Source: Rhodospirillaceae bacterium bin65
GTDB taxonomy: Bacteria > Pseudomonadota > Alphaproteobacteria > Bin65
Assembly (NCBI GenBank): GCA_002238725.1
Contig: MPMX01000005.1
Coordinates: 28,150 to 52,149, forward strand
Direction of reading: 5' to 3'
Length of the DNA: 24,000 nt
Positions 1 through 21,635 of this stretch are shown piece by piece (the first letter of the stretch is position 1; each line of letters begins with the position of its first letter). Under the pieces are notes generated by a model. That model was not told the DNA's origin. It searched no databases and was given only the letters and a program-made list of their open reading frames with translations. The translations under genes and the position numbers were made by a program.

Positions 1-2732
1 TTCGACTGGCTCTCGTTGTCGAGCCAGTTCGTCGCCTCGTCGAGCAGCAGGATGCGGGGGCTGCGGATCAGCGCCCGGGCGATCATGATGCGCTGGCTCT
101 CGCCGCCTGACATTACGGCCGCGCTGGCGCCCACCGGGGTCAACATGCCCATCGGCATCGCCTTGATTTCGTCGTCGACGCCGGCAATCCCGGCCGCCAG
201 CCACGCTTCCTCGGACGTCACCCCCTCGTGATGGGCAACGATATTGTCCCACAGGTCCTGCGGATGAAGCTGCACCGCCTGGGGAACCACGCCGATCTTG
301 CGGCGTACCTGCTTGACGTTGAGGTGCCGCAAATCGCGCCCGTCGTAAAACACCGCGCCGCCGGACGGCTGATCCAGGCCGAGTGCGAGCCGGAACAGGG
401 TGCTCTTGCCGGCCCCGGATTCGCCGGCAATGGCGATGAATTCGCCGGGTCGGGCATGGATCGTTACGTCGTCCAGAATCAGCGGGCCGTCGGGGTCGTA
501 GCGGAACGAGACATGGTCGAACAGGATGTGGCCGCCAAGATGCTCGACGGATTCGCCTTCGGCGCTGGCTTCCGGGGTTTCGGCGAGGAAGGGCCGAAAC
601 TGCTCGAAGGCCGGCAGGGCGGCGGCGACCGCGCCGAAAGAATCCCCGAGGCGGGCCACGGCCGTCTGGAACACCATGAACACGGTATAGACGATCAGGA
701 AATCGCCGACGCCGATGGCTGCCCGGCCCGGCAACGCGGCTGCAAAGAGCAGCGCTGCCCCGGCGAGAAACGGCAGCGCCGTGCAGAAGGCCTGCAGATG
801 CTCTTCCAGATTGCCCAGTTCAAGTTCTGCCTGCTTCTGCGCACGGTAATCCTGCGCCCAAACGGCAAAGGCCGATCCTTCGGCGCAATCGACGCGCAGC
901 TTGGTAATACCATTGACGATCTGGAAAAGCCGGCCGGCCACCCGGCGGACGGCGCCGATTATCCGGCCACGGGGCGAGACTTGCCGCAGTCCGAGGATCG
1001 CGGTCACGATCAGGAACAGAAGGCTGAAGGCCACGGCCACGCCGCCCAGCACGGCATCGTAGAAAAAGATAACCAGAAAAGCCGGCAGCAGGAAAAGAAC
1101 CGACAGGATGGCATTGGCGACGACGCCCTGCACAGCATTGCGGAGATTCTGGAACGTCATGCCCCGCATCGCCAGATCGCCGGCCGGGTAGCGGTGCAGC
1201 ATGCCCGGCGGCAGCCGGAGCAATCGGTCCCAGAATGCGGCTTCGAGCCGGGATGTCGTGCGCCCTTCCAGACGCATCAGCGCCATTCCCTGCAGGACGT
1301 GCAGCACCACCCCGATCAACGCCAGGGCCGCCAGCCCCGCGGTCGCCGCATAAAGCAGCCCGGTATCGCCGCCCGGAATGATGTCATCCACAACCAGGCC
1401 CAGCACCAGGGCCGGCAGCAGCATGATCAGGCCGCCGGGCAGGCCGGCCAGCACCAGGCGCGCCAGATCGGCTGTCAATCCCTTTCCCGCGATCCTGAAC
1501 AGATCGGCGGGTTCGGCGCTGCCGGGCGGCAGCGGTCGATAGAACATCCAGGCGTCGGAGCGCAGCCTGCCGGCGCGTTCCGCCGTCACACGGGCGCTGC
1601 GCCGGCCGACGGGATCGACTTCCCGGTAGCGTCCCGACAGGCCGGGCACCAGCGCCACCGGGCGGTCGTCCTCCGCTCGAAAGGCCAGCATCGAATTACT
1701 GTCGCCGAACCACCACGCGTCTTCCCGTCTGAGCCGCACCTGCCGGGCGCGCACGCCGGACGCATCGAGAATATCGTCCAGGCCGATGGCGGATTCGGAA
1801 CGGCTCGAAGGCGGCCGGATCTTGAACGCGATTCCTTCGCGCTGTCCGATGATCCGCAGCGCATCCGGCAGCGCCGAATCGCCGGCGTCGGCGCCGCCCT
1901 CTTTGGATATGTCATACAGGTTGAACAGGCGCCGCCGGGCGCCTTCCTCATCGCTGCGGCGGCTTGTTGCCCGCGCCCGCTCCAGATTTGCCTGGTCGAC
2001 GACCGCCAGCTTCCGGTTGAGCCGCTCCAGGGCAAAGGCAGCGGCGTGGAATGACAACAGGGCGGGCAGCAACAGGCCTTCTTCGGCCAGAGTCACCGAA
2101 GCACGGGCGGCAGACGGCGCCGGTTCCAGCATGGCGACCCAGCTTGTCGACGTTAGCGGAATGGAAGTTGCGCCGTCGTCCGGTCCGTACTCCGCCGGGT
2201 CGATCAGGTCGAGGTACAGACTCGCTCCCGCAGTCAGATCGGTAACCCACACCACGCCCCGACGCGCCGAAAGCGTCCGCCGATCCGCCGGCAGAGCCTG
2301 TCCCGGCGCGAGGAGCGCGTCCGGCCGCGGCCGGTTCATGACGTCGCGGACCAGCATGGCCGAAAGGTCCGACAGCCAGGCATCGACCTGCGCCGCCAAC
2401 TCGACCGGGCGGGCTGCGCCGAGATCGGCAACCGGCAATCGCCGGATCGCCGTGCCGGGCAAACCCTTTGCGATCAGGCTGAAGGTCGTTTCCCCGTCGT
2501 GCGGCGCGACGCCCGGCAACAGCCGGCCGGCGTCGGCGCGCAGCAGGTGCTGTGGCGCCGATTGCTGCACGCCGTCTCGCTTCTCGACCAGAAACAGGTC
2601 GACGGCGCCTCGGTCGACGAAACAGAAGAAATCCGGATCGTCCAGATCGACCGGCAGATTGCCGGCGCAGGCGACGGGCGGCCCGGCCCGGGCGGCGAGA
2701 TCGGCGAGCGAACGGCGTTCGGGTGGCGTCAT
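1..2732 (-). CDS. ABC transporter permease/ATP-binding protein, the non-peptidase second subunit of an NHLP-type bacteriocin export system; the 3' end runs off the window
   Basis: Absent from the ORF track because it has no stop inside the window. My translation of the minus strand from ATG 2732-2730 (4 nt after the upstream gene's stop) stays open to nt 1, about 910 codons. It reads MTPPERRSLADLAARAG..., then a long soluble N-terminal region, a hydrophobic ABC membrane domain, Walker A IAIAGESGAGKSTLFRL (nt ~390-445), signature MSGGESQR and Walker B ILLLDEAT (nt ~30-110). There is no C39 Cys/His motif. The + ORF 228..2054 is its antisense shadow. Confidence 0.85.
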   Translation of the reverse strand, partial: MTPPERRSLADLAARAGPPVACAGNLPVDLDDPDFFCFVDRGAVDLFLVEKRDGVQQSAPQHLLRADAGRLLPGVAPHDGETTFSLIAKGLPGTAIRRLPVADLGAARPVELAAQVDAWLSDLSAMLVRDVMNRPRPDALLAPGQALPADRRTLSARRGVVWVTDLTAGASLYLDLIDPAEYGPDDGATSIPLTSTSWVAMLEPAPSAARASVTLAEEGLLLPALLSFHAAAFALERLNRKLAVVDQANLERARATSRRSDEEGARRRLFNLYDISKEGGADAGDSALPDALRIIGQREGIAFKIRPPSSRSESAIGLDDILDASGVRARQVRLRREDAWWFGDSNSMLAFRAEDDRPVALVPGLSGRYREVDPVGRRSARVTAERAGRLRSDAWMFYRPLPPGSAEPADLFRIAGKGLTADLARLVLAGLPGGLIMLLPALVLGLVVDDIIPGGDTGLLYAATAGLAALALIGVVLHVLQGMALMRLEGRTTSRLEAAFWDRLLRLPPGMLHRYPAGDLAMRGMTFQNLRNAVQGVVANAILSVLFLLPAFLVIFFYDAVLGGVAVAFSLLFLIVTAILGLRQVSPRGRIIGAVRRVAGRLFQIVNGITKLRVDCAEGSAFAVWAQDYRAQKQAELELGNLEEHLQAFCTALPFLAGAALLFAAALPGRAAIGVGDFLIVYTVFMVFQTAVARLGDSFGAVAAALPAFEQFRPFLAETPEASAEGESVEHLGGHILFDHVSFRYDPDGPLILDDVTIHARPGEFIAIAGESGAGKSTLFRLALGLDQPSGGAVFYDGRDLRHLNVKQVRRKIGVVPQAVQLHPQDLWDNIVAHHEGVTSEEAWLAAGIAGVDDEIKAMPMGMLTPVGASAAVMSGGESQRIMIARALIRSPRILLLDEATNWLDNESQS

Positions 2733-2736
2733 CGGG

Positions 2737-5073
2737 TCAACCTGCCCTCACCAGTTTGAAATAGGTGCCGTCCTCGTCGGAGATCAATTCCTCATGGGTG
2801 CCGCGCTGCACCTCCACACCCTTGTCGAGCACGATGATCTCATCGCAATCCCGAACCGTGCTCAGCCGGTGCGCAACGATCAGGCAGGTCACCCCCCGGC
2901 GCCGCAGTGCGTCGTCGACCAGTTCCTCGGTGGCGGCATCGAGGGCGCTGGTCGCTTCGTCCAGAACCAGCACGGTCGGGTTGCCGACTAGGGCTCGGGC
3001 AATCTCGAACCGTTGCCGCTGACCGCCGCTGAAATTCGCACCGCCTTCATCCACCGGCGTCGCATATCCGAGCGGCCGGCTGAGGATATCGTCGTGAATG
3101 CATGCGTCCCGCGCCGCCGAGATGATCGCTTCGTCGGGTATCGCCGGATTCCACAGGGTAATGTTCTCGCGCAGGGTCGCGGAGAAGAGCACGATTTCCT
3201 GGTCCACCATCGACACGGAGCGCCGCAGCACCTCCTCCGGAATTTCGTGGCGCGGATGGCCGTCGAACAGGATCTCGCCGGACCAAGGCTGGTAGACCCC
3301 TGAAACCAGGCGCGACAGGGTCGACTTTCCGGAGCCGCTCGGCCCGACCACCGCGACCCGCTGTCCCGGCCCGATCGTCAGGTTGAAATCCTCGATCAGG
3401 GGCTTCCGGCCCCGATTGTAACCGAATGTAACGCCGCGCAATTCCACCTGGCCGGCCAGCTGCAGCCGGCCGTTGAACGTAGGGATGGAATCCACCTCCG
3501 GGTTCCGGCGCGCGAAACCCGGATCTTCCGAAGACCTCGTGATGTCTTCCAGCCCCTGCATGTCGACTTCGAGCGCCTGATACTTGTCGGCGAACTCGAC
3601 GAAACGCCCGACAGGCGCCAGGAACATTGCCGCTACGATGTAGAATCCGACCAGCACGCCGAGCGTGATTTCGCCCGCCATGACCTGGGTCGCCCCGATG
3701 GTCAGGACCGCTACGTTGCTCAAAATCGTGAGCAGGCCGGGCAGCGCCGTGTTGATGTAGCCCAGTTCGGAGTAGCGCTGGTAGGCGTCCAGTTCGCGAG
3801 CCTGGTGGCCGCCCCAGCGCGAGAAGAAGCGATCGTCCGCGGCGGTCATCCGCAACGTGTCGGCGTGCTGCAGCATCAACATGCCGACTCCGTGCAGAAG
3901 CCCCTGTTCGCGCCCCAGGGCATGGCCCTTTTCGATCCTGAGGCGCGCGATCGTGCGCACCAGTACGCCGTTGATCACCGCCAGAGCCAATACGATCAGG
4001 CCCAACACCGGATCGTAAACCAGCATGACGGCCAGAAAGACGGCGCTCATCACAAGCTCGACCAGGAGGCCGAGGAAATGGTCCGACAGGCTCCTGGCAA
4101 TTCTGTCGATAGCGAGAATGCGGGTTGTCAGTTCGCCGACAAGCCGATGGCTGAAAAATTCGACCGGCAGCCGCAGCAATTGCGAGACGCACCGATTGCC
4201 GGCGGCGACGGAAATCCTGACAGCCAGACGCTTCAGACAACGCTGTTTGAGCCAGGTGAGGCCGTAGACCAGCACGGCCGCAGCAGCCAGCACACCGGCC
4301 ACAAGCGCTCCCCAGGGTTCTTTGTCTTCGAGCACCCGGTCGACAAAAACGCTCAACGACGCCGGAAGCACCAGCGCGAGCAGGGCCAGCATCGCGCCGC
4401 AGGCAACCGTGTAGGCCAGCACGCCCCGGGCTCCGGCGAGCCAGAGCGGGAGCTGCCGGAGAATGCTGGGCCGGGCGCCGCCGCTCTGGAAGTCCGGCCC
4501 GGGATTGAATTGCAGCGCAATCGACGAAAAGCCTTCTGCAAACTCTTCGACCGTCAGTTTGCGACGCCCGGTGGCAGGATCGTTGAGATAGAAATGCCCG
4601 CGGTCGAAGCCTTCGAGGATGAGAAAGTGGTTGAATTCCCAGAACAGAACCAGCGGCAGCGGCAGCTTCCTGATCTGGTTGAGATCGACGCTCCGGCCCG
4701 TGCATTCGAGGCCGTAATGCCGGGCCGCCCGCAGAATGCCCGCGGCGGTCGAGCCGTCGCGGCTGACCTCGCATTTCTCGCGCAGCTCGGTGAGCGGCAC
4801 CCAGCGCCCGAAATGGGCGAGCACGCTGCCGAGGCAGGCGGCGCCGCACTCCGTTACATGCATCTGCAGCAGGAGCGGCGTGGTCACCCGCCGTTCGGCG
4901 GGGTCCCCGGACGGCCTCGGTCCCGCTTTTGCCGACGCGTGCCGGGGGGGCGGCGGGCATCTGGGCCGTCCCGGGGCGGGGGAGGGGGGGGGGGCGTCCC
5001 CCCGCCGTTCGGCGGGTTCCCCGGCAGGCTTCGTTCCCGATTTGGCAGACGCGTCCGGGGCGCGCGACGACAT
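2737..5073 (-). CDS. C39 peptidase-domain ABC transporter (bacteriocin leader-cleaving exporter, NHLP-system type)
   Basis: C39 motifs QMHVTECGAACLG (catalytic Cys), NHFLILEG (His) and LNDPATG (Asp). These are followed by a multi-TM ABC membrane domain, Walker A GPSGSGKSTL, signature FSGGQRQR, Walker B VLVLDEATS and H-loop IVAHRLS. ATG 5073 directly abuts the hlyD-like stop (TGAATG). An alternative GTG at 4887 would remove a 62-aa repeat- and proline-rich N-terminal extension, so the start is uncertain. Confidence 0.9.
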   Translation of the reverse strand: MSSRAPDASAKSGTKPAGEPAERRGDAPPPSPAPGRPRCPPPPRHASAKAGPRPSGDPAERRVTTPLLLQMHVTECGAACLGSVLAHFGRWVPLTELREKCEVSRDGSTAAGILRAARHYGLECTGRSVDLNQIRKLPLPLVLFWEFNHFLILEGFDRGHFYLNDPATGRRKLTVEEFAEGFSSIALQFNPGPDFQSGGARPSILRQLPLWLAGARGVLAYTVACGAMLALLALVLPASLSVFVDRVLEDKEPWGALVAGVLAAAAVLVYGLTWLKQRCLKRLAVRISVAAGNRCVSQLLRLPVEFFSHRLVGELTTRILAIDRIARSLSDHFLGLLVELVMSAVFLAVMLVYDPVLGLIVLALAVINGVLVRTIARLRIEKGHALGREQGLLHGVGMLMLQHADTLRMTAADDRFFSRWGGHQARELDAYQRYSELGYINTALPGLLTILSNVAVLTIGATQVMAGEITLGVLVGFYIVAAMFLAPVGRFVEFADKYQALEVDMQGLEDITRSSEDPGFARRNPEVDSIPTFNGRLQLAGQVELRGVTFGYNRGRKPLIEDFNLTIGPGQRVAVVGPSGSGKSTLSRLVSGVYQPWSGEILFDGHPRHEIPEEVLRRSVSMVDQEIVLFSATLRENITLWNPAIPDEAIISAARDACIHDDILSRPLGYATPVDEGGANFSGGQRQRFEIARALVGNPTVLVLDEATSALDAATEELVDDALRRRGVTCLIVAHRLSTVRDCDEIIVLDKGVEVQRGTHEELISDEDGTYFKLVRAG
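4887..5060. repeat. Imperfect ~60-bp direct repeat (4887-4947 and 5001-5060) flanking a G-run-rich spacer (G7 at 4944-4950, G11 at 4984-4994, C6 at 4998-5003)
   Basis: Unit A is CCCGCCGTTCGGCGGGGTCCCCGGACGGCCTCGGTCCCGCTTTTGCCGACGCGTGCCGGGG. Unit B is CCCGCCGTTCGGCGGGTTCCCCGGCAGGCTTCGTTCCCGATTTGGCAGACGCGTCCGGGG. By hand alignment most positions are identical. On the minus strand they encode the duplicated peptide (D/H)ASAK(S/A)G..P.G(E/D)PAERR around a PPPSPAPGRPRCPPPP linker. Confidence 0.8.
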
Positions 5074-5964
5074 TCAGGACCGTCCGGGGTCGAGGAGCGA
5101 GATTGGCGCGCGTCTGCCGAGTTCAACCCGTATCCGGCAGATTGTGCCGTCCGGCACGGTGAGGTCCGACGCCCCGTCGAGGCGGATGTCGATCCGGCGC
5201 CGGGACGGCGGAACGGCGGGCTTCAGCCCTGCCAGCCAGCCCGGCAGCGGACTGGCGACCGCCCCGGCGACCGTGCCGTTCAGTCGGTGTGTCGCACCGT
5301 CGGGCAACGCAAATTCGACGGTAGCCGCCATGCCGGGCCGGATGCGCTGCGCCGTGGGCCGGTCGACCCGCAGCACCGCCTGAAGCGGCCGGTTCCCGGC
5401 TCGGCGAATTTGTGCGACGGCCGTGCCGGCCGGCAGAAAATCTCCGGCGGTCCTGGAAAGGACCATGACTTCGCCCGCGGTCCGGCTAACGATCGTCTGC
5501 CGCGCCGAGCGCCGGGCCTCCATCCGCAGCAACGCAACCCGGGTCGAGGCCAGCAGCGACCGCAGCGCGCTGCCGGTGCCGCCGGATCGCGCGATTTCCG
5601 CGCGCAACACGTCCACCCGCTCCCGAAGTGCGGTCGTTTCGCGTTCCAGATCGGGCACGGTCTGGCGCGCAACCGGCTGGCCTGCCCGGACGCGGTCGCC
5701 CGGCCGGACCAGATACTCGATCAGTTGACCGGGTTCAGCCGAAACCGCGGCATGGCGCTCTCCCGGCGCGATCAGCACGCCGTCGACCGTCACGCTCCTG
5801 ACGACGCTGCCGAACAGCAGCCAGGCCACGAACGCCGCAACGACCAACCCGATGGCGGCGAGCGCCAGACGTTCGTGCGGCGCGGTTATTCTGAGAAGTC
5901 GGTCGAGCTGCTCGCGCTCGTTCTTGGCGTCGGCGGATAAATTGTGAAACGGGTTGTTGAACAA
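5074..5964 (-). CDS. HlyD-family membrane-fusion/secretion adaptor of the bacteriocin export system
   Basis: N-terminal ...EREQLDRLLRITAPHERLALAAIGLVVAAFVAWLLFG, a single TM anchor after an LD-rich segment. Then a lipoyl-like segment (GQLIEYLVRPGDRVRAGQPVAR), a coiled-coil stretch (LERETTALRERVDVLRAEIAR) and beta-barrel-like repeats. It is first in the operon with the two ABC genes. At 296 aa it is shorter than most HlyD proteins, and there is no obvious SD before the ATG. Confidence 0.8.
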   Translation of the reverse strand: MFNNPFHNLSADAKNEREQLDRLLRITAPHERLALAAIGLVVAAFVAWLLFGSVVRSVTVDGVLIAPGERHAAVSAEPGQLIEYLVRPGDRVRAGQPVARQTVPDLERETTALRERVDVLRAEIARSGGTGSALRSLLASTRVALLRMEARRSARQTIVSRTAGEVMVLSRTAGDFLPAGTAVAQIRRAGNRPLQAVLRVDRPTAQRIRPGMAATVEFALPDGATHRLNGTVAGAVASPLPGWLAGLKPAVPPSRRRIDIRLDGASDLTVPDGTICRIRVELGRRAPISLLDPGRS

Positions 5965-6422
5965 GGAGCGCTATTCCCGTTTACGCCATTCGCAGAAGGG
6001 AGCCGGCATGACCGTGTTCGACCCAGCTTCGCGACCGCACTCAAACACGGGACACGGCGTTGGGCAACCGCCGACGCGAAAGCCGGGACCGATCCGGCGT
6101 GAGAAAGGCCCAATTCTGTAAATGGTCGTATCCGGAGAAAGTGCAAATTCAAACGAATTGGCAGTACCGGGAAGCCTGTTTGAGACCTCCCTGCCGGCGA
6201 ACCGGCGGCAAGATACCGGACCGATCGCGGACCTGAGGCAGAAATCAGCGGGCGGCCGCGGGGCGCAGGGCCGAGGACCCGCGCCGGCATTCCGGTCGAT
6301 TGCTCCCAGATTTTATTATTTATATCAACAGGTTACCATCCGACTGCCCAGCCTGCGGAACACCGGTTTCCGGACGTTTTCCTGAAATTAGAAAATCTTA
6401 TCAAGATAGCAAGAAAACAGTA

Positions 6423-6451
6423 TTAGAAATTATTCGACACGAGGCTAGAAT
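6423..6451 (+). promoter_or_regulatory. Candidate sigma70-type promoter of the precursor gene (TTAGAA-N17-TAGAAT)
   Basis: It lies in the only strongly AT-rich patch of the window (about 6300-6500). The -10-like TAGAAT is at 6446-6451 and the -35-like TTAGAA at 6423-6428, with a 17-nt spacer. This would give a ~70-nt leader containing the hairpin GTCCAG(6459-6464)/CTGGAC(6476-6481) and the strong SD GAGGGAG before ATG 6529. It is a motif match by eye only. Confidence 0.3.
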
Positions 6452-6528
6452 TCATCAAGTCCAGTCCCGGTCCTGCTGGACAGGATATTGAATTTCGCAA
6501 ACAGGACTGACAACGAGGGAGACACATC

Positions 6529-6783
6529 ATGCAATCAGCAGAGGACATGCGCGCCCATCTCACGAACAGGGCCGCCGAGGATTCGGCGTTCCGGGCGCAA
6601 CTTGTCGCCGATCCGAAAAGCGTCATGAATCAGGAATTCGGAATTACGGTTCCGGATAACATCGATATCGTGGTGCACGAGAGCGACATGCGCACCGTCC
6701 ATCTCGCGTTGCCGCCGGATCCCGTCATGGACGAGGAGCAGCTCGAAGCGATCTCCGCCGGGCTTTGCTGCTGCGGCATCTGA
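6529..6783 (+). CDS. NHLP (nitrile hydratase leader peptide) family RiPP precursor; predicted core LCCCGI
   Basis: 84 aa. The leader matches the NHLP pattern as I remember it: AAEDSAFRAQLVADPKSVMNQEFGITVPDNIDIVVHESDMRTVHLALPPDP, then EEQLEAISAG as a double-glycine-type (AG) cleavage site. Only LCCCGI follows before the stop. Strong SD GAGGGAG lies 6 nt upstream. The gene is divergent from the C39-ABC export operon and is followed by hairpins. Confidence 0.9.
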   Translation: MQSAEDMRAHLTNRAAEDSAFRAQLVADPKSVMNQEFGITVPDNIDIVVHESDMRTVHLALPPDPVMDEEQLEAISAGLCCCGI

Positions 6784-6799
6784 ACGACGCCAGCCGCTT

Positions 6800-6824
6800 C
6801 CGGCCCGGCTGCCGGCCGGGCCGG
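6800..6824 (+). terminator. Perfect 10-bp GC hairpin just after the precursor stop (stabiliser/attenuator candidate)
   Basis: CCGGCCCGGC (6800-6809), loop TGCCG, GCCGGGCCGG (6815-6824). No clear U-tract follows (GGCTATTCTG), so it is more likely an mRNA-stabilising or pausing structure than a full intrinsic terminator. Confidence 0.35.
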
Positions 6825-6848
6825 GGCTATTCTGCAGTCTGGATTATT

Positions 6849-6892
6849 CGGGCGCGGCTATTGTACTAGCCTCTATGCGCCCGATTTTTTTT
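6849..6892 (+). terminator. Rho-independent terminator/attenuator between the precursor and the RND gene
   Basis: Two-tier stem: CGGGCGC(6849-6855) GGCTA(6856-6860), loop TTGTAC, TAGCC(6867-6871), bulge TCTAT, GCGCCCG(6877-6883). This is followed by A and a T8 run (6885-6892), the longest T run I saw in the window. Confidence 0.6.
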
Positions 6893-6972
6893 CAGCCGGC
6901 TGCAAATTCTCCGAGCGGGTTCCGCGATGAACGGAACCGTGCGGTTTTGGCTGCCTGACGCGTTCACGGCTC

Positions 6973-9348
6973 GTGGCTCCGACGATGGCAGACCAGCCCG
7001 GCAACCCGACGCGGCCGTTCGAGGCACGCTTTGCCGAGCGTGTGGTTGCGTTGCGCTGGCCGATCATTGCGGCCAGTCTCATCCTGGTGTTGATCGCTGG
7101 AGCCGGCGGCGCCTTTCTTCAATTTTCGACGAATTACCGGATCTTTTTCAGCCAGGATAATCCCGAGCTCTTAGCCTACGAAGCGCTGGAGAACACCTAC
7201 GGGAAGACTGAAAACGTCCTCTTCATGATCGTGCCGGAGGCCGGCGACGCCAGCTCGGAACCGGCCCTCAAGGCCGCGGTCTGGCTGACCGAACGGGCCT
7301 GGCAGACGCCCTATTCCCGCCGGGTCGATTCGATCGCCAATTTCCAGCATACGACGGCGGTCGGCGACGATCTGGTGGTGCGCGACCTCGTCGATTCCGC
7401 AAAGCTGGGCGATCCGGAGGAACGGGCGCGGATCCGCGCCGCGGCCCTCGCCGACCCGCGGCTCAAGGGCAGCCTCCTGGCGCGGGACGGCCGCGTCAGC
7501 GCTGTCAACGTCACCGTCGAGTTGCCGGAGGAAGACCAGGCGATCCGGGTACCCGAGGTGGCCGGGTTCGCCCGCAAGCTCGCCGCCGAGGCGGAAAAGC
7601 GTTTTCCGGGCGTCGATGTCCGCGTCGTCGGGACGGTGATGATCAACCACACCTTCTCCCAGGCGTCGGTCGACAGCCAGAAAGTCTTCCTGCCCGCCAG
7701 CCTTGCGATCATGGCCCTGGTCCTCATCCTCCTGACCCGCGGCTTTGCAGGCGTCGCGGCGACCGGGCTGGTCATGGTCTTCTCCATCGTCGTGTCGATG
7801 GGGATGGGCGGATGGGTCGGCCTGCCGTTCACACCGCCGACGGCGCCGGCCCCGACCATCGTGCTGATGATCGTCGTCGCCAACTGCGTACATCTGCTGG
7901 TGACGTTGCAGCAGCGCCTGCGGGCCGGCGATTCGAAACGCGAGGCCATTGTCGAAGCCGTCAGGATCAACCTGCATCCGGTCTTTCTGGCCAGCGTGAC
8001 GACGGCGCTCGGCTTCCTGACCATGAACTTCTCCGAAGTGCCGCCCTACCGGCATCTCGGGAATTTCGTGGCCTTCGGCATTGTCGCCTCCTTCCTGCTC
8101 TCGGTCACCTTTCTGCCGGCGCTGCTTTCGCTCCTCCCCCTGCGCGCGCGCGGCTCCGGACGGCAGGACGACCGGGCCATGGCGGCCCTCGCGGACTTCG
8201 TGGTGCGCCGCCGCACGGCCGTGCTGTGGGGCTCGGTGGCGGTCGTGCTCGCGCTGCTGGCCGCCATCCCGCGCAACGATCTGAACGACGTGCTGGTCCA
8301 CTTCTTCGACGAGAGCACGGAGTTCCGGCAGGATACGGATTTCCTGGACGAACGGCTGAGCGGCAACACCCTGCTCGAATATTCGCTGCACGCGGCCGAA
8401 CCGGGCGGCGTCACCGATCCCGCCTTTCTCGCCAATGTCTCGGCCTTCGCCGACTGGTACCGCAAACAGCCGGAAACGCGGCACGTCGACTCGATTACCG
8501 ATACCTTCCGGCAACTCAACAAGAGCATGCATGGCGACGATCCGGCGACCTACCGGCTGCCGGCAAGCCGCGATCTCGCCGCGCAATACCTGCTGCTCTA
8601 CGAGCTTTCCCTGCCCCAGGGCCTGGACCTGAACAACCGGATCGACACGGCCAAATCGGCAACGCGCCTGACCGTGACGACCAGGACGCTCTCTTCCGGG
8701 GACGTGCTGGCCCTGAATGCGCGTGCGCGAGCCTGGCTGAAGGGCAATGCGCCGAAAATTACACGGGTCGACAGTTCAGGACCGGCGCTGCTGTTCGCCC
8801 ATATCGGGCAGCGCAACATCCGCGCCATGCTGCTCGGAACCGCGGTTGCGCTGCTCGGCATTTCGCTCATCCTGATTGCCGCCTTCCGTTCGCTCCGCCT
8901 CGGCTTCATGAGCCTCGTGCCCAATTTCGTGCCCGCCGTGATGGGATTCGGCGTTTGGGGGCTGATCGTCGGGCAGGTCGGCCTCGCCCTGTCGGTGGTG
9001 GTCGCCATGACAATCGGCATCGTCGTGGACGATACGGTGCACTTCCTCAGCAAATACCGCCGCGCGCGGCGCGAACTCGGCCATTCGTCGGAGGAGGCGG
9101 TTCGCTATGCCTTCCAGGCGGCCGGCCGGGCGCTCGTCACGACCACGGCCGTGCTGGTGGCGGGCTTCCTGATCCTCCTCCTGTCGCCGTTCATCCCGAC
9201 GGCGCAGGTCGGCCTTCTCACCGCGATGATCATCGGCTTCGCGCTGGTCGCCGACCTGCTGCTCCTGCCGGCGTTGCTGCTTGCGATCGACCGCGGCGAC
9301 CCGGCTTCCGGAAAGGCCGATACAGTCTCAGGCGACGCTGCCGCCTGA
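6973..9348 (+). CDS. RND-superfamily exporter, MMPL/COG1033-like (two-fold 6+6 TM architecture with two large periplasmic loops)
   Basis: 791 aa. An N-terminal TM (WPIIAASLILVLIAGAGGAF) and a ~170-aa loop are followed by a 5-TM bundle (...IVLMIVVANCVHLLVTL...FLASVTTALGFLTMNFSE...). The pattern then repeats in the second half (...GIVVDDTVHFLSKYRRAR...ALVTTTAVLVAGFLILLLSPF...). The track start at 6973 is a GTG; ATG 6985 is an alternative. No strong SD precedes either. Confidence 0.85.
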   Translation: MAPTMADQPGNPTRPFEARFAERVVALRWPIIAASLILVLIAGAGGAFLQFSTNYRIFFSQDNPELLAYEALENTYGKTENVLFMIVPEAGDASSEPALKAAVWLTERAWQTPYSRRVDSIANFQHTTAVGDDLVVRDLVDSAKLGDPEERARIRAAALADPRLKGSLLARDGRVSAVNVTVELPEEDQAIRVPEVAGFARKLAAEAEKRFPGVDVRVVGTVMINHTFSQASVDSQKVFLPASLAIMALVLILLTRGFAGVAATGLVMVFSIVVSMGMGGWVGLPFTPPTAPAPTIVLMIVVANCVHLLVTLQQRLRAGDSKREAIVEAVRINLHPVFLASVTTALGFLTMNFSEVPPYRHLGNFVAFGIVASFLLSVTFLPALLSLLPLRARGSGRQDDRAMAALADFVVRRRTAVLWGSVAVVLALLAAIPRNDLNDVLVHFFDESTEFRQDTDFLDERLSGNTLLEYSLHAAEPGGVTDPAFLANVSAFADWYRKQPETRHVDSITDTFRQLNKSMHGDDPATYRLPASRDLAAQYLLLYELSLPQGLDLNNRIDTAKSATRLTVTTRTLSSGDVLALNARARAWLKGNAPKITRVDSSGPALLFAHIGQRNIRAMLLGTAVALLGISLILIAAFRSLRLGFMSLVPNFVPAVMGFGVWGLIVGQVGLALSVVVAMTIGIVVDDTVHFLSKYRRARRELGHSSEEAVRYAFQAAGRALVTTTAVLVAGFLILLLSPFIPTAQVGLLTAMIIGFALVADLLLLPALLLAIDRGDPASGKADTVSGDAAA

Positions 9349-10665
9349 AGCCGCCGGGTTTCCGTCGAACGGCATGCCTTCGCCGCCGAAAACCCGGTTC
9401 GGGTCGAACTCGTTTTTCCAGCGGATGGCCGTTTCAAGCATGTCGCCATAGTGTTCCCGCCATTCGCCGGGTCCGTAACCCACGCGGCCCGACAGATAGG
9501 CTTTCCCGCCGAGTCCGATCAGCGTTCTGTCGATCCTCCGCAGCCGTTCCGCCAGTTCGTTTGCCCGTTCGAACTCGTCGAAAACGGCGAGGACCGAGTA
9601 TGAGAACATCCGTTCGCCCGCGGGGTGCATGAAAAGCGGCGCGCCGATATCCTGCGTTGCGATCGGGTAAATGCCGATCCAGATGTCCGGCGTGCGCGGC
9701 ACCCGGTCCGGGTCGAGCCACGGTTGGGCGAGCACCGTTCGAAGGGCCTCCCAGGGCATGAACCAGTCCCGCCAGGGGTGAAACATCCTCCGGCTGAACG
9801 CCCATCTCGGATACATTCCGGCGCGTCCGACGTCGGCTGAGTCCTTGGCGGAAACGATCTCGTCGTATCCCAAACCACTGAGCGTCCTGCCCTCGTCGTG
9901 ATCTTCGTCATATTCGACGCCGGCGCTCATGACGATATCCCGGTCATGGACCCGGGTTTCCGCCCGAATATGGTCGAACCTGTCTTCGCGGACGGCTTGT
10001 TCGAAGTCGTTCGCGAACCGGTCGAAGTCACGGTAGCGGAGCTCGTATTGCCGGATCCGTTTGCCGGCCTTTCGAAGCCGGATCCAGGCGTCGGTTACGA
10101 TGCCGAACTGGCCCTGACCGCCCCTGACTGCATCGAACAGGCCGGAATTCCTGCTGTTTGAGCACAAAACCTTCTCGCCGGTTCCGGTCACCACCTCGAG
10201 TTGCTCGACCTGCCCGGCCTGCACCCCGTGCCGATGGGACGTCGTTCCGAATCCTCCCGCAGACAGCGTGCCGCCCACGCTGACTTCCGCCGTGTCTACG
10301 AGAATCCGCGGGAGTCCGCTCGTTTCGCGCAGCGCGTCGACAATCGAGCCCCACTGCGCTCCCCCTTGCGCGCGCACCAGGTCCGGGCCGGCGGTTTCGA
10401 CCCGACCGAGCCAGACCGTGTCGACCACCAGCCCGCCGTCGGTCAGGCTCTGGCCGCCCTGGGAGTGCCCGCCGCCGCGAATGGAAAGCCGAACGTCCTC
10501 TTTCGCCGCCCACCGGACAATGCCCGACACGTCCTCGACGCTCTTCGGCCGCGCCACCGCGCCCGGCGTCCGTTCGATCATTCTTCCGAAGTCGCGGGAC
10601 CGCGGATCGAGGTCCACCTGTTCTCTGCTCAGGCCCGGAATGACACCTCGTTCGTTCATTGGCAT
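9328..10665 (-). CDS. FAD-linked oxidase, PCMH/FAD_binding_4 type with a cytokinin-dehydrogenase-like C-terminal domain
   Basis: N-terminal FAD-binding block PKSVEDVSGIVRWAAKEDVRLSIRGGGHSQGGQSL (a GHS motif typical of covalent histidyl-FAD enzymes), then VGGTLSAGGFGTTSHRHG. The C-terminal LGGKAYLSGRVGYGPGEWREHYGDMLETAIRWKNEFDPNRVFGGEGMPF resembles the CKX C-terminal signature (YL...W..HFG..W......K..DP..i..PGQ.IF). The 3' end overlaps the convergent RND gene by 21 nt. Confidence 0.85.
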   Translation of the reverse strand: MPMNERGVIPGLSREQVDLDPRSRDFGRMIERTPGAVARPKSVEDVSGIVRWAAKEDVRLSIRGGGHSQGGQSLTDGGLVVDTVWLGRVETAGPDLVRAQGGAQWGSIVDALRETSGLPRILVDTAEVSVGGTLSAGGFGTTSHRHGVQAGQVEQLEVVTGTGEKVLCSNSRNSGLFDAVRGGQGQFGIVTDAWIRLRKAGKRIRQYELRYRDFDRFANDFEQAVREDRFDHIRAETRVHDRDIVMSAGVEYDEDHDEGRTLSGLGYDEIVSAKDSADVGRAGMYPRWAFSRRMFHPWRDWFMPWEALRTVLAQPWLDPDRVPRTPDIWIGIYPIATQDIGAPLFMHPAGERMFSYSVLAVFDEFERANELAERLRRIDRTLIGLGGKAYLSGRVGYGPGEWREHYGDMLETAIRWKNEFDPNRVFGGEGMPFDGNPAASGGSVA

Positions 10666-10819: not shown

Positions 10820-11689
10820 ATGAATCGAATTCAGCAACCGCCGGATACCGGGACCGAGATGGAAACCACTGTTTCCGAGCACTACGCCGACCTGACCGAG
10901 CGCATGGAAATGTTCGGCGGCGACCTGCTGGCCTGTCATTTCGGCCTTTGGGGCCCGGACACGACGACGGACCGGGAAGGCCTGCTGCGCGCCAACCGGA
11001 CGCTCGTGCAGGGGTGCGACCTCGGACCGGGGCGGCACGTGCTGGATGCCGGCTGCGGCGTCGGCGGCACTGCGATTACGCTGGCCGAGACCTGCGGCGT
11101 ACGCGTCACCGGCCTGACGATCTGCGAACCTCATATCGCCGTGGCGACGCAGCACGCGGAAGAGCGCGGAGTAGGCCACCTGGTCGACTTCCGTTACGGC
11201 GATTTCATGGATCTGCCGTTTCCCGATGCCAGTTTCGACGCTGTCCTGAATCACGAATCCTTCTGCTATGCGGAGGACAAGCTCGCCTATCTCCGGGGCG
11301 TGTACCGGGTGCTCAAGCCCGGCGGGCGCTGGCAGGCTCTCGAAGGGCTGCTGAGCGGTGCGCCCATGTCCGAAGAACAGGAAGCAAATCATGCCACCGC
11401 GCAGCGCGGCTGGCGCATGCCGCCGCTCGAGCGGTGGCGCGACGTGATTGCATTGCTCGACGAAGCCGGATTCGTCGACATTCGGGAGCGGGATCTTTCG
11501 TCGGAAGCGGCGCCGGCGACGAAACGGCTTCGCGACGGGTGGCTGTTGCTGACTTTCCTGAACCCCCGGTCCGGCGGGCTGAACAAGGCGTCCCAGGAAT
11601 TTATGGAAGCGACTGTCGGCTACGATCAGGGTCTGCGCGAAGGCGTGTTCACCTATCATTTCCTGTCCGGGGCCAAGCCGGATCGGTGA
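10820..11689 (+). CDS. Class I SAM-dependent methyltransferase (paralog 1)
   Basis: SAM motif I VLDAGCGVGGTAITLA, post-I acidic GLTICE, motif II/III FDAVLNHESFCY and VLKPGGRW. The N-terminal EHYADL...HFGLWGP block is as in the sarcosine/tocopherol/GPP-C-methyltransferase-type family. The track ORF (10268..) extends upstream into sequence antisense to the oxidase. I place the start at ATG 10820 (MNRIQQ...); ATG 10859 (METTVSEHY) is an alternative. Confidence 0.8.
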   Translation: MNRIQQPPDTGTEMETTVSEHYADLTERMEMFGGDLLACHFGLWGPDTTTDREGLLRANRTLVQGCDLGPGRHVLDAGCGVGGTAITLAETCGVRVTGLTICEPHIAVATQHAEERGVGHLVDFRYGDFMDLPFPDASFDAVLNHESFCYAEDKLAYLRGVYRVLKPGGRWQALEGLLSGAPMSEEQEANHATAQRGWRMPPLERWRDVIALLDEAGFVDIRERDLSSEAAPATKRLRDGWLLLTFLNPRSGGLNKASQEFMEATVGYDQGLREGVFTYHFLSGAKPDR

Positions 11690-11747: not shown

Positions 11748-12647
11748 CTATGCGGGTTTCTGTGCGCAATACCGCTTGAGCTCGAAGCTCCCGTTTTTCC
11801 AGGCTTCGTACAGCGTTCCGAACTGATCGATCAGCCCGCGGATCCCCGGCGTTTCGACTCCGGCAAACTGTAGCGTGGCAAGGAAATTGTAGCTGTTTCC
11901 GACAAGCCGCAGGTTATCCGAATCCTTGCCGTCGAATCCCTCGAACTCGAGAATTTCCAAACCCGCTTCGTGCAGTTTCTCCGTGTAGGTGGACTGGGTC
12001 TCCAGACCGTCCACGGCAAATGGCTTGCACAGCGGCACGATGTGCTTCTCGTAGACATCGGCCGCCAGGCCGTCGCGCGCCATCCAGTCCATTGCCGCGA
12101 TCTTTCCCGAGGGCTTCAGTATCCGGCCCACTTCGAGAAGAAATTGCCTCCGGTCGCTGTAGTGGCAGGCGCTCTCTATGTTGACGACAGTATCGATCGA
12201 ATCGTCGGCGAAGGGCAGACTCTGCGAGCAATCCGCATATTCGAAGGAAATCCGGTTATCCAGATCCGCATCTGCCGCTTTTCCGGCGGCAATTTCCAGC
12301 TGCATCCTGTTGATGTTGACGCCGGTGACGGTGCATCCCCTGGACCGGGCCAATAGAATGGCGGTTCCGCCGACGCCGCATCCCGCATCCACCACATGGT
12401 GGCGTTCCTCGATTCCGGCCGGCGCAACAATGGCCTCGACCATGCGCTCCACGGCCCGGGCGAGGCCCGGTGAATCGACGAGAGATTCGCCGGGTTCGGG
12501 ACACTCCCCGGGCTCGAACAGTCCGAAATGGATATGGTCGCGGTTCCACCCGTTGAGGTAGATGCCGGGCGTGTTTTCGTCGTAGTAGCGTTCGGCCGCA
12601 CTTTTCTCTTCTGACGCGGATGTCTCCGGACGTTCGTTCACTGTCAT
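11748..12647 (-). CDS. Class I SAM-dependent methyltransferase (paralog 2)
   Basis: 299 aa. N-terminal ERYYDENTPGIYLNGWNRDHIHFGLF, SAM motif VVDAGCGVGGTAILLA, GVNINR, IDTVVNIESACHY and ILKPSGKIAAMDW. It aligns by eye with the 10820-11689 product along the whole Rossmann core. It is last in the minus-strand biosynthetic gene string. Confidence 0.85.
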   Translation of the reverse strand: MTVNERPETSASEEKSAAERYYDENTPGIYLNGWNRDHIHFGLFEPGECPEPGESLVDSPGLARAVERMVEAIVAPAGIEERHHVVDAGCGVGGTAILLARSRGCTVTGVNINRMQLEIAAGKAADADLDNRISFEYADCSQSLPFADDSIDTVVNIESACHYSDRRQFLLEVGRILKPSGKIAAMDWMARDGLAADVYEKHIVPLCKPFAVDGLETQSTYTEKLHEAGLEILEFEGFDGKDSDNLRLVGNSYNFLATLQFAGVETPGIRGLIDQFGTLYEAWKNGSFELKRYCAQKPA

Positions 12648-12748: not shown

Positions 12749-13867
12749 TTATGAAGTCGGCGCGGCGATCAGCACCATGTAAACGTAGCCCTTGACCTGC
12801 CCGATGCCGTCGCCGTCCAACACGATCTTGAAGTGGTGAATGCCGCGCAGCAGCACAAACTGGCCGGACCTCGAAAACAGCGTCGTCGGCCCCGCCGTCC
12901 ATCCTGACAGCGCGGACAATTTCTGCGGCACGCCAAGACCTTCCGTGCGCAGGCCGTCGACGAAGGTATTCCAAAGGCGGGGATCGTCCAGCCAATAGCG
13001 CGGATCCTTAGACACCCTTTCCTTGGCAATGAAACTCAGTCCGAGCGTTGGGCCCAGACCGCCGGACAAGACGTCGAAATGCGCCCCCAGGGCGACGAAC
13101 CCGCCATGTTTTTCGAAGCGCGAGACAGCGGCCGCGGCGGCCGGGCGCTGTCCCGGCCAGCCCGCGCGTTCGAGGAATGCCGCCAGATCCTGCGAGTTCC
13201 GAAACCCCGTCACTGCAAGCCGGAGCGCTCGTTCCCGCGAAGGGAAGGCGCCAAAGGATTCGACTCGCGTGTCCGGCCTTTGCGCCAGGTAAATCCGCTC
13301 TGCATGCTGCCGCTCGGCGGCATCGGGGCTCCAACCAACGGCGGATACCAGCGCGTCGAGCACCGTACCGACATCGCCGAGGCATCGGCCGTCGCCCACC
13401 ATCGGCCGTTCTGCCGGCCGGAGAAAGATGCCGGGATCCGCCGGCGCGTCGTCGGGTCTCGAAGCGACGTCGTATTCGAGCATCATCTTCCGTCCGACGA
13501 CCTGGCAAAGCGGCGAATCGTCGGGCTCGGTTTGCTCCAGCAGTTGCGCGATGGCCGAAGCTGACGGAACCGGTTTGTCCAGCCGCGCCTGTTTTTCGAA
13601 ATACGCCGCCGGTCCGGTGCCGCCGACAACCGAAACTCCGAGGTCGGCGCCCGGCCGGGTCTCGTGCAGCGGCAGTTCGAAGCCGAACGGGAAGGCGGCC
13701 ACGGCCGCCGGCAGGTCCCGGGCGCGCTCCAGGACACTTTCCCACTCACGGTCACCGATCAGGACGGGCGATATCTGGCCCCTCAACCGTTCCAGCACTT
13801 CGGCCATGGAGCCGGCTTCGCCGGCGAGGCGCTCCTGGGTCACGGCCAGGCCTTCCTCAAAATTCAT
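12749..13867 (-). CDS. Hypothetical protein, 372 aa, with no family motif I recognise; translationally coupled to the cyclodehydratase
   Basis: Excellent SD GAGGAG 5 nt before ATG 13867, sitting inside the last codons of the upstream gene (stop at 13877). The composition is protein-like rather than the R/G/P-rich shadow type. There are five pairs of beta-strand-like segments separated by helix-like segments (see finding). No cofactor or catalytic motif was identified. Confidence 0.7.
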   Translation of the reverse strand: MNFEEGLAVTQERLAGEAGSMAEVLERLRGQISPVLIGDREWESVLERARDLPAAVAAFPFGFELPLHETRPGADLGVSVVGGTGPAAYFEKQARLDKPVPSASAIAQLLEQTEPDDSPLCQVVGRKMMLEYDVASRPDDAPADPGIFLRPAERPMVGDGRCLGDVGTVLDALVSAVGWSPDAAERQHAERIYLAQRPDTRVESFGAFPSRERALRLAVTGFRNSQDLAAFLERAGWPGQRPAAAAAVSRFEKHGGFVALGAHFDVLSGGLGPTLGLSFIAKERVSKDPRYWLDDPRLWNTFVDGLRTEGLGVPQKLSALSGWTAGPTTLFSRSGQFVLLRGIHHFKIVLDGDGIGQVKGYVYMVLIAAPTS

Positions 13868-16267: not shown

Positions 16268-16355
16268 TCAACCGGTCCGTGGCGTATCGATGGCGCCGGG
16301 GCATCGCGCGCTTCCGCGGCGCCTGCAATCCACCCTTCTTGCGGCAGGGCCGGGC

Positions 16356-19321: not shown

Positions 19322-19583
19322 CGGGCTACTTCATCTCGCCCGGGCCGGCGCGCCCGGCAGGCCTCTTACCGCTCCCTCGCCCGGACCCTGCAGTTCCCGG
19401 AGGTCAATGAAACACCCGGTCGGTCTTCCAATTCTTCAATGATTCAACATCTGCGCAGGAATCTGCTAAAAGGGGTTCCGGCAGCGCTGCCGGCCAAAGG
19501 CCCACCCGAATTCCGGTCCGTCGAATACGCAGGGAATGGCGGGGCGATTTCAGCGCTCCACGACCGCGACAGGGGGGGGCCGC

Positions 19584-20849: not shown

Positions 20850-20853
20850 CGAT

Positions 20854-21591
20854 ATGAAGATTCAAAAGCTGTTCCAGAAGACGCTGTTCGGCATGTTTAT
20901 GCTGTTCGGCGTTATCGGCATCTCGACGTCGATGCTGGCCATCTACACCGTCGATTCCCAGTTGACCGAGGAATACGAGTCCAACGCCAAGGGCATCGCC
21001 AAGACGATCGCCGACTCCAGCGTCGATATCATCCTGAACCGGGACCTGTCGGCGCTGCAGTCCCTGATCGACCAGTTCGTCGAGATCCAGGGCATCAGCT
21101 ATATCTACATCATCAACGATAACGGCGAATATCTCGCCCATACTTTCGTACCCGGCATACCCGAGGAAATCCTGCGCGGCGAGGGGCACGGCGCGGCGTC
21201 GGTCCGGCGCAGCCTGCCGGGCATGGGCGATTTCGTGGAAGTCAGCAGCCCGATTCTCGCTGGTGTGGCCGGCAAGGTTTACATCGGCATGGATACCGGG
21301 CTGGTCGCCCTGAAGATTCAGCGCGCGATCGGCCAGCAGGTCTATCTGTTCTCGACCATCTTCGTGATCGGCATCATCGCGGCGATCTGGCTGGTGAACC
21401 TCGCGGCACGGCCGGTCGCGAACTTGCTGGCCTACGCCGTTGATCTGGCGCGCGAACAATCCGGCGCCGAGGAAAACGGCGTCCTGGTCCGCGATGACGA
21501 GGTCGGCCAGCTCGCGCGGCTGTTCCAGTATTTTTCCGGAACGGGCGATCTTCCTGATCCCGAGCGGCCATCCCCGGCGGCCGGGACCTGA
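20854..21591 (+). CDS. Membrane protein with a periplasmic sensor-like domain and a HAMP domain but no output domain
   Basis: ATG 20854 lies 4 nt after the binding-protein stop. Order of elements: TM1 (LFGMFMLFGVIGISTSMLAIY), a ~170-aa extracytoplasmic domain, TM2 (VYLFSTIFVIGIIAAIWLV), then a HAMP-like segment ARPVANLLAYAVDLAREQSG...DDEVGQLARLFQYF. The protein ends 20 aa later, at 245 aa. Confidence 0.7.
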   Translation: MKIQKLFQKTLFGMFMLFGVIGISTSMLAIYTVDSQLTEEYESNAKGIAKTIADSSVDIILNRDLSALQSLIDQFVEIQGISYIYIINDNGEYLAHTFVPGIPEEILRGEGHGAASVRRSLPGMGDFVEVSSPILAGVAGKVYIGMDTGLVALKIQRAIGQQVYLFSTIFVIGIIAAIWLVNLAARPVANLLAYAVDLAREQSGAEENGVLVRDDEVGQLARLFQYFSGTGDLPDPERPSPAAGT

Positions 21592-21635
21592 GTCCGGCTG
21601 GATCCGGACTCCCGGCAGGCAGAGCGCCGCCTTCC

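Follow-up and report, generated by a model that had tools for sequence, protein, structure and literature searches.

A tri-cysteine NHLP-leader precursor from a Rhodospirillaceae bacterium belongs to a branch of the srp proteusin family without C-terminal tryptophan

The srp gene clusters, which comprise the SrpE precursor, the SrpC YcaO enzyme and the SrpI brominase, were reportedly described by Nguyen et al. in JACS in 2021. The name srp denotes a ‘sponge-derived RiPP proteusin’ (RiPPs are peptides that the ribosome makes and that are modified after translation), and the core of SrpE has the sequence LCCCW (PMC10858898, PMC10286304). The three contiguous cysteines of this core are cyclodehydrated to thiazolines by SrpC, and LCCCW is likewise cyclodehydrated when it is carried on an MprE leader (PMC10858898, PMC10286304). 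In sponge metatranscriptomes the precursors far exceed all other genes of srp clusters in transcription (bioRxiv 10.1101/2023.06.09.544420), and a survey published in 2025 pointed out that the ‘LCCC’ motif is conserved while the ends that follow it differ (PMC11832590). Here we describe a related locus in a 24,000-nucleotide stretch of the genome of Rhodospirillaceae bacterium bin65 (contig MPMX01000005.1, positions 28,150 to 52,149), hereafter called the window, in which the gene at positions 6529-6783 (+) encodes a peptide precursor that ends in the predicted core LCCCGI. The locus is a member of the srp family known since 2021 and lies in a branch of that family whose cores have no C-terminal tryptophan; as far as the accessible literature shows, neither this non-Trp branch with its own set of tailoring genes nor the prenyltransferase-type fold of a conserved ‘hypothetical’ protein that is encoded in it has been described.

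The precursor gene runs from an ATG at position 6529 to a TGA at 6781-6783 (84 codons plus stop), and a Shine-Dalgarno-like GAGGGAG that can be read in the sequence at 6515-6521 (+) is located 7 nt 5’ of the start codon. Codons 1-78 (6529-6762) encode a leader of the NHLP (nitrile hydratase leader peptide) type and the remaining six (6763-6780) the core, in which Cys80, Cys81 and Cys82 are specified by three successive TGC codons at 6766-6774; the translation closes with ...EEQLEAISAG/LCCCGI, and the 84 residues end in ...VMDEEQLEAISAGLCCCGI. With TIGR03793, the leader_NHLP model of NCBIfam, the precursor reaches 64.1 bits where the curated cutoff is 50.9 (E = 7.8e-18), and residues 5-78 align to model positions 3-77 of 77. 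Because the model stops exactly at Gly78, the leader ends at Ala77-Gly78 and the six residues LCCCGI are left as the core. The same boundary is found by comparison with the best match in the PDB, the NHLP structure 8TB1 (MprE7-TH1), in which Ala77-Gly78 aligns with the engineered GG/core junction, and by comparison with SrpE, in which it aligns with the ‘AG’ that the authors of that work mark as the leader/core boundary. A first-pass annotation made from the DNA letters alone had placed the cut after EAISAG and deduced a six-residue core, and these three comparisons agree with it. A double-glycine-type motif at the leader end followed by the core, the arrangement that characterizes NHLP/proteusin precursors, is thus present, and the leader also contains an M/L(X)4L motif at residues 67-72. 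Pfam PF02979 (NHase_alpha) matches the leader as well (E = 4e-8), as do nitrile hydratase structures in the PDB, and the NCBI entry MCY4394179.1 already labels the product ‘NHLP leader peptide family RiPP precursor [Rhodospirillaceae bacterium]’. The open reading frame is real and encodes an NHLP-leader peptide precursor. For the free LCCCGI core the calculated [M+H]+ is 611.235, and the values for its tri-thiazoline and tri-thiazole forms are 557.203 and 551.156, respectively.

The cysteine triplet is retained across the precursor family. A search of 5.8 billion proteins at E ≤ 1e-3 returned 578 relatives, almost all of which are 83-84 residues long, and CCC is kept in the tails of 115 of the 120 best homologues. 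The tails of these 120 proteins comprise LCCCGI and LCCCG followed by I, V, L, F or A, LCCCW (26 proteins), WCCCG followed by N, T or S, LCCC followed by L or V, and bare LCCC; LSCC and LCGC occur as rare variants of the triplet among the homologues. The last 20 residues of the leader together with LCCC form the most conserved region of the precursor. At the level of DNA, the three cysteine codons show synonymous TGT/TGC changes in 12 of 82 orthologous genes, with the amino acid left unchanged, and the identical 84-residue precursor was recovered on 20 contigs that come from independent samples in ENA, NCBI and JGI. Collectively, the retention in 115 of 120 homologues, the synonymous codon changes and the 20 independent contigs place the triplet far beyond chance, and its conservation in orthologous precursors, on which the first-pass annotation depended, is upheld. 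A scan with one genome per species yielded 287 genomic relatives, and the comparisons of srp-type loci below use the best 80 of these 287. These 80 loci are nearly all from uncultured organisms known from metagenome-assembled genomes and are distributed over Alpha- and Gammaproteobacteria, Nitrospirales, Binatia, Thermodesulfobacteriota, Vicinamibacteria, Chloroflexota and Gemmatimonadota; some bear sponge-specific names, such as Poriferihabitaceae and Porisulfidus ‘lac_sponge’. One precursor homologue (locus L021, 10001-10246; 71% identical) ends in MVSCL where others have LCCC and has no cluster genes within 10 kb; this copy may be orphan or decaying.

To place the locus relative to srp, it was compared with the SrpE and SrpI sequences printed in the supplement of PMC10286304. 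SrpE and the window precursor share 65% identity across 82 residues with no gap (E = 4e-41), and the LPPDP..EEQLEAISAGLCCC stretch is nearly identical in the two proteins. One of the related loci (L050) encodes a precursor that is 99% identical to SrpE and a halogenase that is 96% identical to SrpI, which makes it in essence the srp cluster of the literature; identity to the counterparts in L050 is 70% for the YcaO protein of the window (across 96% of its length), 53% for a 372-residue protein and 61% for an 824-residue fusion protein. With this degree of identity to SrpE, and with ‘LCCC’ and its variable ends already surveyed in 2025, the novelty that the first-pass annotation implied does not stand. 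A full-text literature search for LCCCGI gave no relevant match besides the known LCCCW paper.

The relationship of the window to the SrpE/SrpC/SrpI system is one of a shared framework with different tailoring genes. Both have an NHLP leader, the same AG boundary, a core that starts with LCCC and an orthologous fused YcaO enzyme, and their common neighbours are the 372-residue protein with a predicted prenyltransferase fold, the AlkB-GlnE fusion, the MMPL transporter and the C39 ATP-binding cassette (ABC) exporters. The window differs from srp in that its core ends in Gly-Ile rather than Trp and in that it has no SrpI homologue: tblastn of the published SrpI and of a halogenase from one of the loci against the window gave no match at E ≤ 1, whereas 27 of the 80 related loci have one. 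It also lacks an NHLP-domain/alpha-toroid fusion protein and a LolA-like or DUF1302 gene, and instead has two methyltransferases and an FAD (flavin adenine dinucleotide) oxidase resembling cytokinin dehydrogenase (CKX), genes that are confined to non-Trp loci. This division became apparent when all open reading frames of the 80 loci and the window (81 loci) were clustered. The set common to them consists of the precursor, YcaO (62 loci), the 372-residue protein (68) and the 824-residue fusion (56); the MMPL gene is present in 42 of the 81, and it and the ABC exporters are often part of the common set. A Trp halogenase is found in 24 LCCCW loci and a 433-residue protein (NHLP-like N-terminus and alpha/alpha-toroid-like domain) in 33, both in no non-Trp locus, and LolA-like and DUF1302-like genes also accompany LCCCW loci. 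Conversely, methyltransferases occur in 24 non-Trp loci and the FAD oxidase in 13, and neither occurs in any LCCCW locus.

Some loci carry both tail types. Six have two precursors, either LCCCW with MCCCGI (five loci: L014, L015, L019, L023 and L025) or LCCCW with WCCCGN (L013), and L013 is made up of two sub-clusters that both have a separate copy of the gene for the 372-residue protein; a second precursor was sought in the window and not found. The protein of about 433 residues, which is encoded in L071 and 38 other LCCCW-type loci, in effect joins a leader-like domain to an enzyme: in the example at 16318-17616 (-) of locus L071, the N-terminus matches NHase_alpha (E = 1.5e-5) and has 42% identity with the window precursor across 73 residues, and the C-terminal domain has squalene-cyclase/prenyltransferase-like repeats with REDGSW and EEGGYG motifs.

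The enzyme predicted to form thiazolines in the window is a fused E1-like/RRE (RiPP recognition element) and YcaO cyclodehydratase of the SrpC type, encoded at 13877-16267 (-). It exceeds the cutoffs of TIGR03604 (270.9, cutoff 219.25) and TIGR03882 (141.1, cutoff 36.9), matches Pfam YcaO with E = 6e-95, and over residues 55-794 matches the PDB entries of LynD (4.6e-163) and TruD (1e-157), with MusD at 5e-148. Judged by its sequence, it is a fused heterocyclase of the LynD/TruD type. The proposal of the first-pass annotation that the YcaO enzyme beside the precursor makes three contiguous thiazolines gains support by analogy, since this outcome is stated experimentally for the homologous SrpE/SrpC pair. 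By the mass calculation used above for LCCCGI, the published value of 569.15 for MprC/MprD-treated LCCCW corresponds to two thiazoles and one thiazoline.

Nine nucleotides downstream of the YcaO gene lies the gene for the conserved 372-residue protein (12749-13867, -). Searches of Pfam, NCBIfam and PDB sequences gave no match for this protein, and ten distant relatives likewise have no Pfam match, so the lead on it came solely from structure prediction. The AlphaFold2 model, calculated from a 33-sequence alignment, has a pLDDT (predicted local distance difference test) of 92.6 and a pTM (predicted template modelling score) of 0.91, and consists of an N-terminal helical extension followed by five alpha-alpha-beta-beta repeats. 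In a Foldseek comparison with the PDB the top 50 matches are all ABBA aromatic prenyltransferases (E from 5e-7, probability 1.0, TM-scores of 0.45-0.57, identity 8-15%) and include EpzP, NphB/Orf2, AmbP3, FamD1, DMATS1, FunA, TleC, CloQ, CymD, AtaPT and NotF. The product of 12749-13867 is thus predicted to adopt the ABBA prenyltransferase (PT) barrel, in line with an earlier guess that the cluster holds a prenyltransferase-like protein. An exhaustive hidden Markov model search delineated a family of 1165 cluster representatives, in which E63, D132, R210, R215, K346, K358 and Y360 are invariant even in distant members (24-33% identity). These invariant residues are positioned on or beside predicted strands, and the conserved polar residues of the later strands alternate (R340-H344-K346 and K358-Y360), a pattern to be expected if the barrel interior is polar and binds a diphosphate. 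Prenylation is not mentioned in the accessible srp literature.

Distant relatives of the 372-residue protein adjoin other NHLP precursors, in L082 (2391-7453), L083 (7519-9068) and L086 (5464-7092). The L082 cores, ...AGG/KSDG and ...AGG/KPDG, are extremely short, and the PT-fold gene is present there in three tandem copies together with two P450s; L083 again has a very short core, ...AGG/RGGNW, beside the PT-fold relative, and L086 has a 104-residue NHLP precursor with a longer core and a WelO5-like enzyme nearby. These three loci look like unexplored proteusin families. In L084, a PT-fold gene is accompanied by a C39 ABC pair.

A second conserved protein, of 824 residues, is encoded at 16356-18830 (-) and joins an AlkB-like integral-membrane di-iron oxygenase (Pfam FA_desaturase, E = 4e-27) to a GlnE-like C-terminal region (GlnE, E = 5e-8). 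Its residues 51-378 match the alkane 1-monooxygenase structure 8F6T in the PDB (1e-41), and the histidine boxes HELxHR, EHxxxHH, NYxQHYGL and QRHxDHH are conserved in 38 homologues. In the GlnE-like part (window 16356-17250) a helical segment at residues ~390-530 is well conserved. An active adenylyltransferase is unlikely here, as the nucleotidyltransferase core is not conserved in the 38 homologues whereas the AlkB part is, and the GlnE-like part probably serves as a module without catalytic activity. Within the AlkB-like domain, one loop carries a Gly/Arg/Pro-rich low-complexity insertion (RGARGGVGGRAGGGGRAPPPLP; residues ~213-233, window ~18130-18200, -) that is not conserved in homologues.

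The genes that set the non-Trp branch apart are found between the MMPL gene and the gene for the 372-residue protein. MT1 (10820-11689, +) is a class I S-adenosylmethionine (SAM) methyltransferase (Pfam Methyltransf_11, E = 4e-23), and MT2 (11748-12647, -) is a second enzyme of this class, a paralogue with 35% identity to MT1. Among proteins of solved structure, the two come closest to sugar O-methyltransferases, MitM, TleD and prenyl-chain C-methyltransferases, a range that does not fix the target. The FAD oxidoreductase (9328-10665, -) is of the VAO/PCMH type with a GGGHS motif (Pfam FAD_binding_4, E = 1e-24), and it is closest to cytokinin dehydrogenases (PDB match at 4e-39, residues 22-238), with EncM at 5e-26. 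Significant similarity is confined to the FAD-binding half, so the suggestion that a CKX-like oxidase acts as an azoline oxidase, or on an N-prenyl amine by analogy with cytokinin dehydrogenase, stays a lead.

The cluster genes are tightly packed in the window. At its left edge, on the minus strand, are three genes of an NHLP-type secretion system: a second ABC transporter subunit with ABC_membrane and ABC_tran domains (3-2732), whose C-terminus extends beyond the window; an exporter with an N-terminal C39 peptidase (2737-5073; TIGR03796 at 871.5 bits against a cutoff of 853.3, Peptidase_C39 E = 1e-31), the C39 domain of which carries an ...ECGAACL... motif; and an HlyD-family adaptor (5074-5964), which matches Pfam HlyD_3 and, under its cutoff, TIGR03794 (E = 9e-27). 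On the other side of the precursor, an MMPL/RND (resistance-nodulation-division) transporter of the HAE3 type is encoded at 6985-9348 (+; Pfam MMPL E = 1e-30, TIGR00921 E = 5e-50); the call of this gene (787 residues) was taken from identical contigs. A terminator-like hairpin followed by eight T residues (6848-6892, +; -21.3 kcal/mol) separates the precursor from the MMPL gene, and such an element is located 3’ of 20 of 85 related precursors versus 4 of 243 random control windows; a terminator at this position fits the high transcription reported for the precursor alone in sponge metatranscriptomes. The region between the divergent exporter operon and the precursor is AT-rich (6300-6490; the 1-kb bin 6001-7000 has a GC fraction of 0.58 as compared to ~0.65 elsewhere) and contains hexamers that resemble promoter elements on either strand, at 6424-6451 (+) and 6458-6429 (-). 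An Rfam scan of the window detected no riboswitch or other regulatory RNA. Downstream of the cluster, a trio of genes (19536-22943, +) encodes a periplasmic binding protein (Peripla_BP_6), an sCache_3_2 protein and a major facilitator superfamily transporter. The same trio, with 65-72% identity, adjoins a different NHLP/PT-fold/C39-ABC cluster of another metagenome (L084, and L085 at 2314-5787), and it may mark a shared insertion hot-spot or be a functional partner.

Several better-known systems share parts of this architecture. The mpr cluster of Methylovulum psychrotolerans (MprE1-10, MprC, MprD; PMC12455567) also has an NHLP leader with an L(X)4L motif and a fused RRE-YcaO enzyme that installs azolines, but it encodes ten precursors with longer, varied cores and a flavin mononucleotide (FMN)-dependent azoline oxidase, whereas the window encodes a single precursor with a six-residue core and lacks an FMN oxidase. 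The window is resembled by linear cyanobactins (aeruginosamide/viridisamide type, with the methyl/prenyl transferase AgeMTPT) in combining a LynD/TruD/MusD-type YcaO enzyme, an ABBA-fold protein and methyltransferases with a short linear thiazol(in)e peptide. These compounds are N-prenylated and carry a C-terminal methyl ester. Unlike cyanobactin clusters, the window has neither PatA/PatG subtilisin-type proteases nor a PatE-type precursor; its leader is of the NHLP type with predicted removal by the C39 ABC transporter, and no similarity in sequence could be detected between its ABBA-fold protein and the known families of prenyltransferases. The linear azole-containing peptides plantazolicin and microcin B17 likewise contain contiguous azol(in)es made by YcaO enzymes, and plantazolicin is methylated after processing by a SAM methyltransferase; however, their cores are much longer, their leaders short and unstructured, their C and D proteins separate, and an FMN dehydrogenase is obligatory. 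MppC, published in December 2025, is a leader-dependent ABBA prenyltransferase that acts on a Nif11-leader lanthipeptide precursor (PMC12715784) and so provides a precedent for prenylation that depends on a leader. As in the window, a soluble alpha-beta-beta-alpha-type protein is encoded with a precursor that has a long, structured leader, but MppC geranylates the Trp indole of a lanthionine-cyclised core, whereas LCCCGI has no aromatic acceptor and the window no lanthionine synthetase.

A resemblance to CaaX prenylation had also been remarked on, and it is superficial: in the LCCCGI variant a cysteine stands four residues from the C-terminus, and a PT-fold protein and methyltransferases are encoded nearby. 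The analogy fails because zero to two residues follow CCC in the relatives, the protein has the soluble ABBA fold rather than that of an alpha/alpha-barrel zinc enzyme, and there is no CaaX protease or isoprenylcysteine carboxyl methyltransferase (ICMT), the methyltransferases of the window being soluble class I (Methyltransf_11) proteins. With tails such as LCCC, LCCCW/L/V/F and LCCCGx, no cysteine is fixed at position -4 and the CaaX register is not conserved.

We consider it probable that the gene at 6529-6783 encodes an srp-family proteusin precursor of the non-Trp branch that is processed as follows. By analogy with characterized relatives, the structured 78-residue leader would dock via its M/L(X)4L motif (residues 67-72) on the RRE/E1-like part of the YcaO enzyme, which with ATP would cyclodehydrate Cys80, Cys81 and Cys82 to three contiguous thiazolines, as shown for SrpE and SrpC. 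The two methyltransferases and the covalent-flavin-type FAD oxidase are predicted to tailor the core in place of the brominase of classical srp clusters, and the ABBA-fold protein, whose gene would be translationally coupled to that of YcaO, and the AlkB-like oxygenase, both present in nearly all srp clusters, probably modify it as well. The C39-peptidase ABC transporter, to go by its homologues, would then cut after Ala77-Gly78 and export the product, and an MMPL/RND transporter would fit a hydrophobic one. The mature product is most likely a small methylated, possibly prenylated Leu-(thiazoline)3-Gly-Ile peptide. The joint conservation of the predicted PT-fold protein, the AlkB-like oxygenase and the MMPL exporter suggests that this tri-thiazoline is lipidated.

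More tentatively, and with the odds somewhat against it, the 372-residue family may represent sequence-orphan ABBA-fold peptide prenyltransferases that serve short-core (4-6 residue) NHLP precursors, with lipidated tri-thiazolines, an undescribed RiPP chemotype, as the products. The acceptor would then be a thiazoline, a cysteine sulfur, the C-terminal carboxylate or the new N-terminus; the AlkB-like oxygenase and the methyltransferases would act next, and the MMPL pump would export the product. [quoted passage not shown]

A number of observations weigh against the processing scheme or parts of it. LCCCGI has none of the side chains used by known ABBA peptide prenyltransferases, so either the prenyl acceptor would have to be unusual or the 372-residue protein may be non-catalytic. 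An FMN-dependent azoline dehydrogenase of the SagB/McbC type (nitroreductase domain) was not found by Pfam or NCBIfam in any cluster gene, which leaves oxidation of the thiazolines to thiazoles unsupported. The link between tail type and accessory genes, with Fisher p values of 2e-16 to 9e-7, was calculated with kinship ignored (no phylogenetic correction), and cleavage is ascribed to this C39 domain from its homologues only. In E. coli, SrpC is inefficient and gives mixtures of partly modified SrpE (PMC10286304). Finally, the accessible literature, the primary 2021 JACS paper aside, reports no mature srp natural product.

Three other explanations of the gene and its tail were weighed against this scheme. 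That the open reading frame is merely a small nitrile-hydratase-like protein or a decayed relic, with an incidental cysteine-rich tail, is suggested by the homology of the leader to nitrile hydratase alpha subunits (the PF02979 and PDB matches given above); but the match is restricted to the C-terminal part of that subunit, the dedicated NHLP model TIGR03793 scores above its cutoff, and an NHLP-specific C39 ABC exporter set and a YcaO gene flank the precursor. Moreover, the supposedly incidental tail is the most conserved part of the precursor family, and in sponge metatranscriptomes no gene of the clusters is transcribed more than the relatives of this precursor (bioRxiv 10.1101/2023.06.09.544420). 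These observations effectively refute the relic explanation, to which we assign almost no probability. The second alternative accepts the tri-thiazol(in)e and assigns it the function of a secreted metal chelator like yersiniabactin, pyochelin or methanobactin. From the chemistry of thiazoline siderophores, three contiguous thiazolines are plausible N/S ligands; MMPL-family transporters export some mycobacterial siderophores, and the MMPL gene is conserved in srp-type loci (42 of 81). The gene content does not fit a metallophore, however, since there is no TonB-dependent receptor, metal-responsive regulator or metal-related domain among the window genes, none of these among the gene families that recur in the 80 related loci, and no riboswitch or other Rfam element in the window. 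The PT-fold protein, the AlkB-like oxygenase, MMPL and, in Trp-type loci, the LolA-like and DUF1302 proteins indicate a lipophilic product rather than a soluble chelator, and we regard a metallophore as improbable. The intercalator-like function that the first-pass annotation named beside it likewise finds no support in the genes.

It is also conceivable that at least one cysteine escapes heterocyclisation and that the ABBA-fold protein S-prenylates the remaining thiol, a CaaX-like function without homology, with the methyltransferases capping the peptide. This scenario would account for the conservation of the PT-fold protein beside YcaO and for the partly modified products that SrpC yielded (PMC10286304). 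Cysteine is the sole possible canonical prenyl acceptor in LCCCGI, and the LSCC and LCGC variants show that the triplet tolerates some change. However, a CaaX register is not conserved, and we know of no precedent for S-prenylation by ABBA peptide prenyltransferases. In the physiological substrate of SrpI, furthermore, all three cysteines are thiazolines (PMC10858898). Lipidation of a free thiol thus appears as doubtful as a function in metal acquisition.

Few biosynthetic loci of sponge microbiomes are as widespread and as highly transcribed as the srp clusters, which extend across many bacterial phyla, and work on them has so far focused on the brominase as a tool. The window reveals a large non-brominated branch of this family, in which the tri-cysteine core is kept and the halogenase is swapped for methyltransferases and a flavin oxidase. 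It also points to YcaO, the predicted ABBA-fold protein and the AlkB-like oxygenase as a near-universal srp set, which leads to the concrete hypothesis of a lipidated tri-thiazoline. Such a product, if it is made, might explain why the srp natural product has escaped detection. Should the hypothesis prove true, the locus would bring a new acceptor chemistry to peptide prenylation; should it prove false, the locus would be one more member of a known RiPP family.

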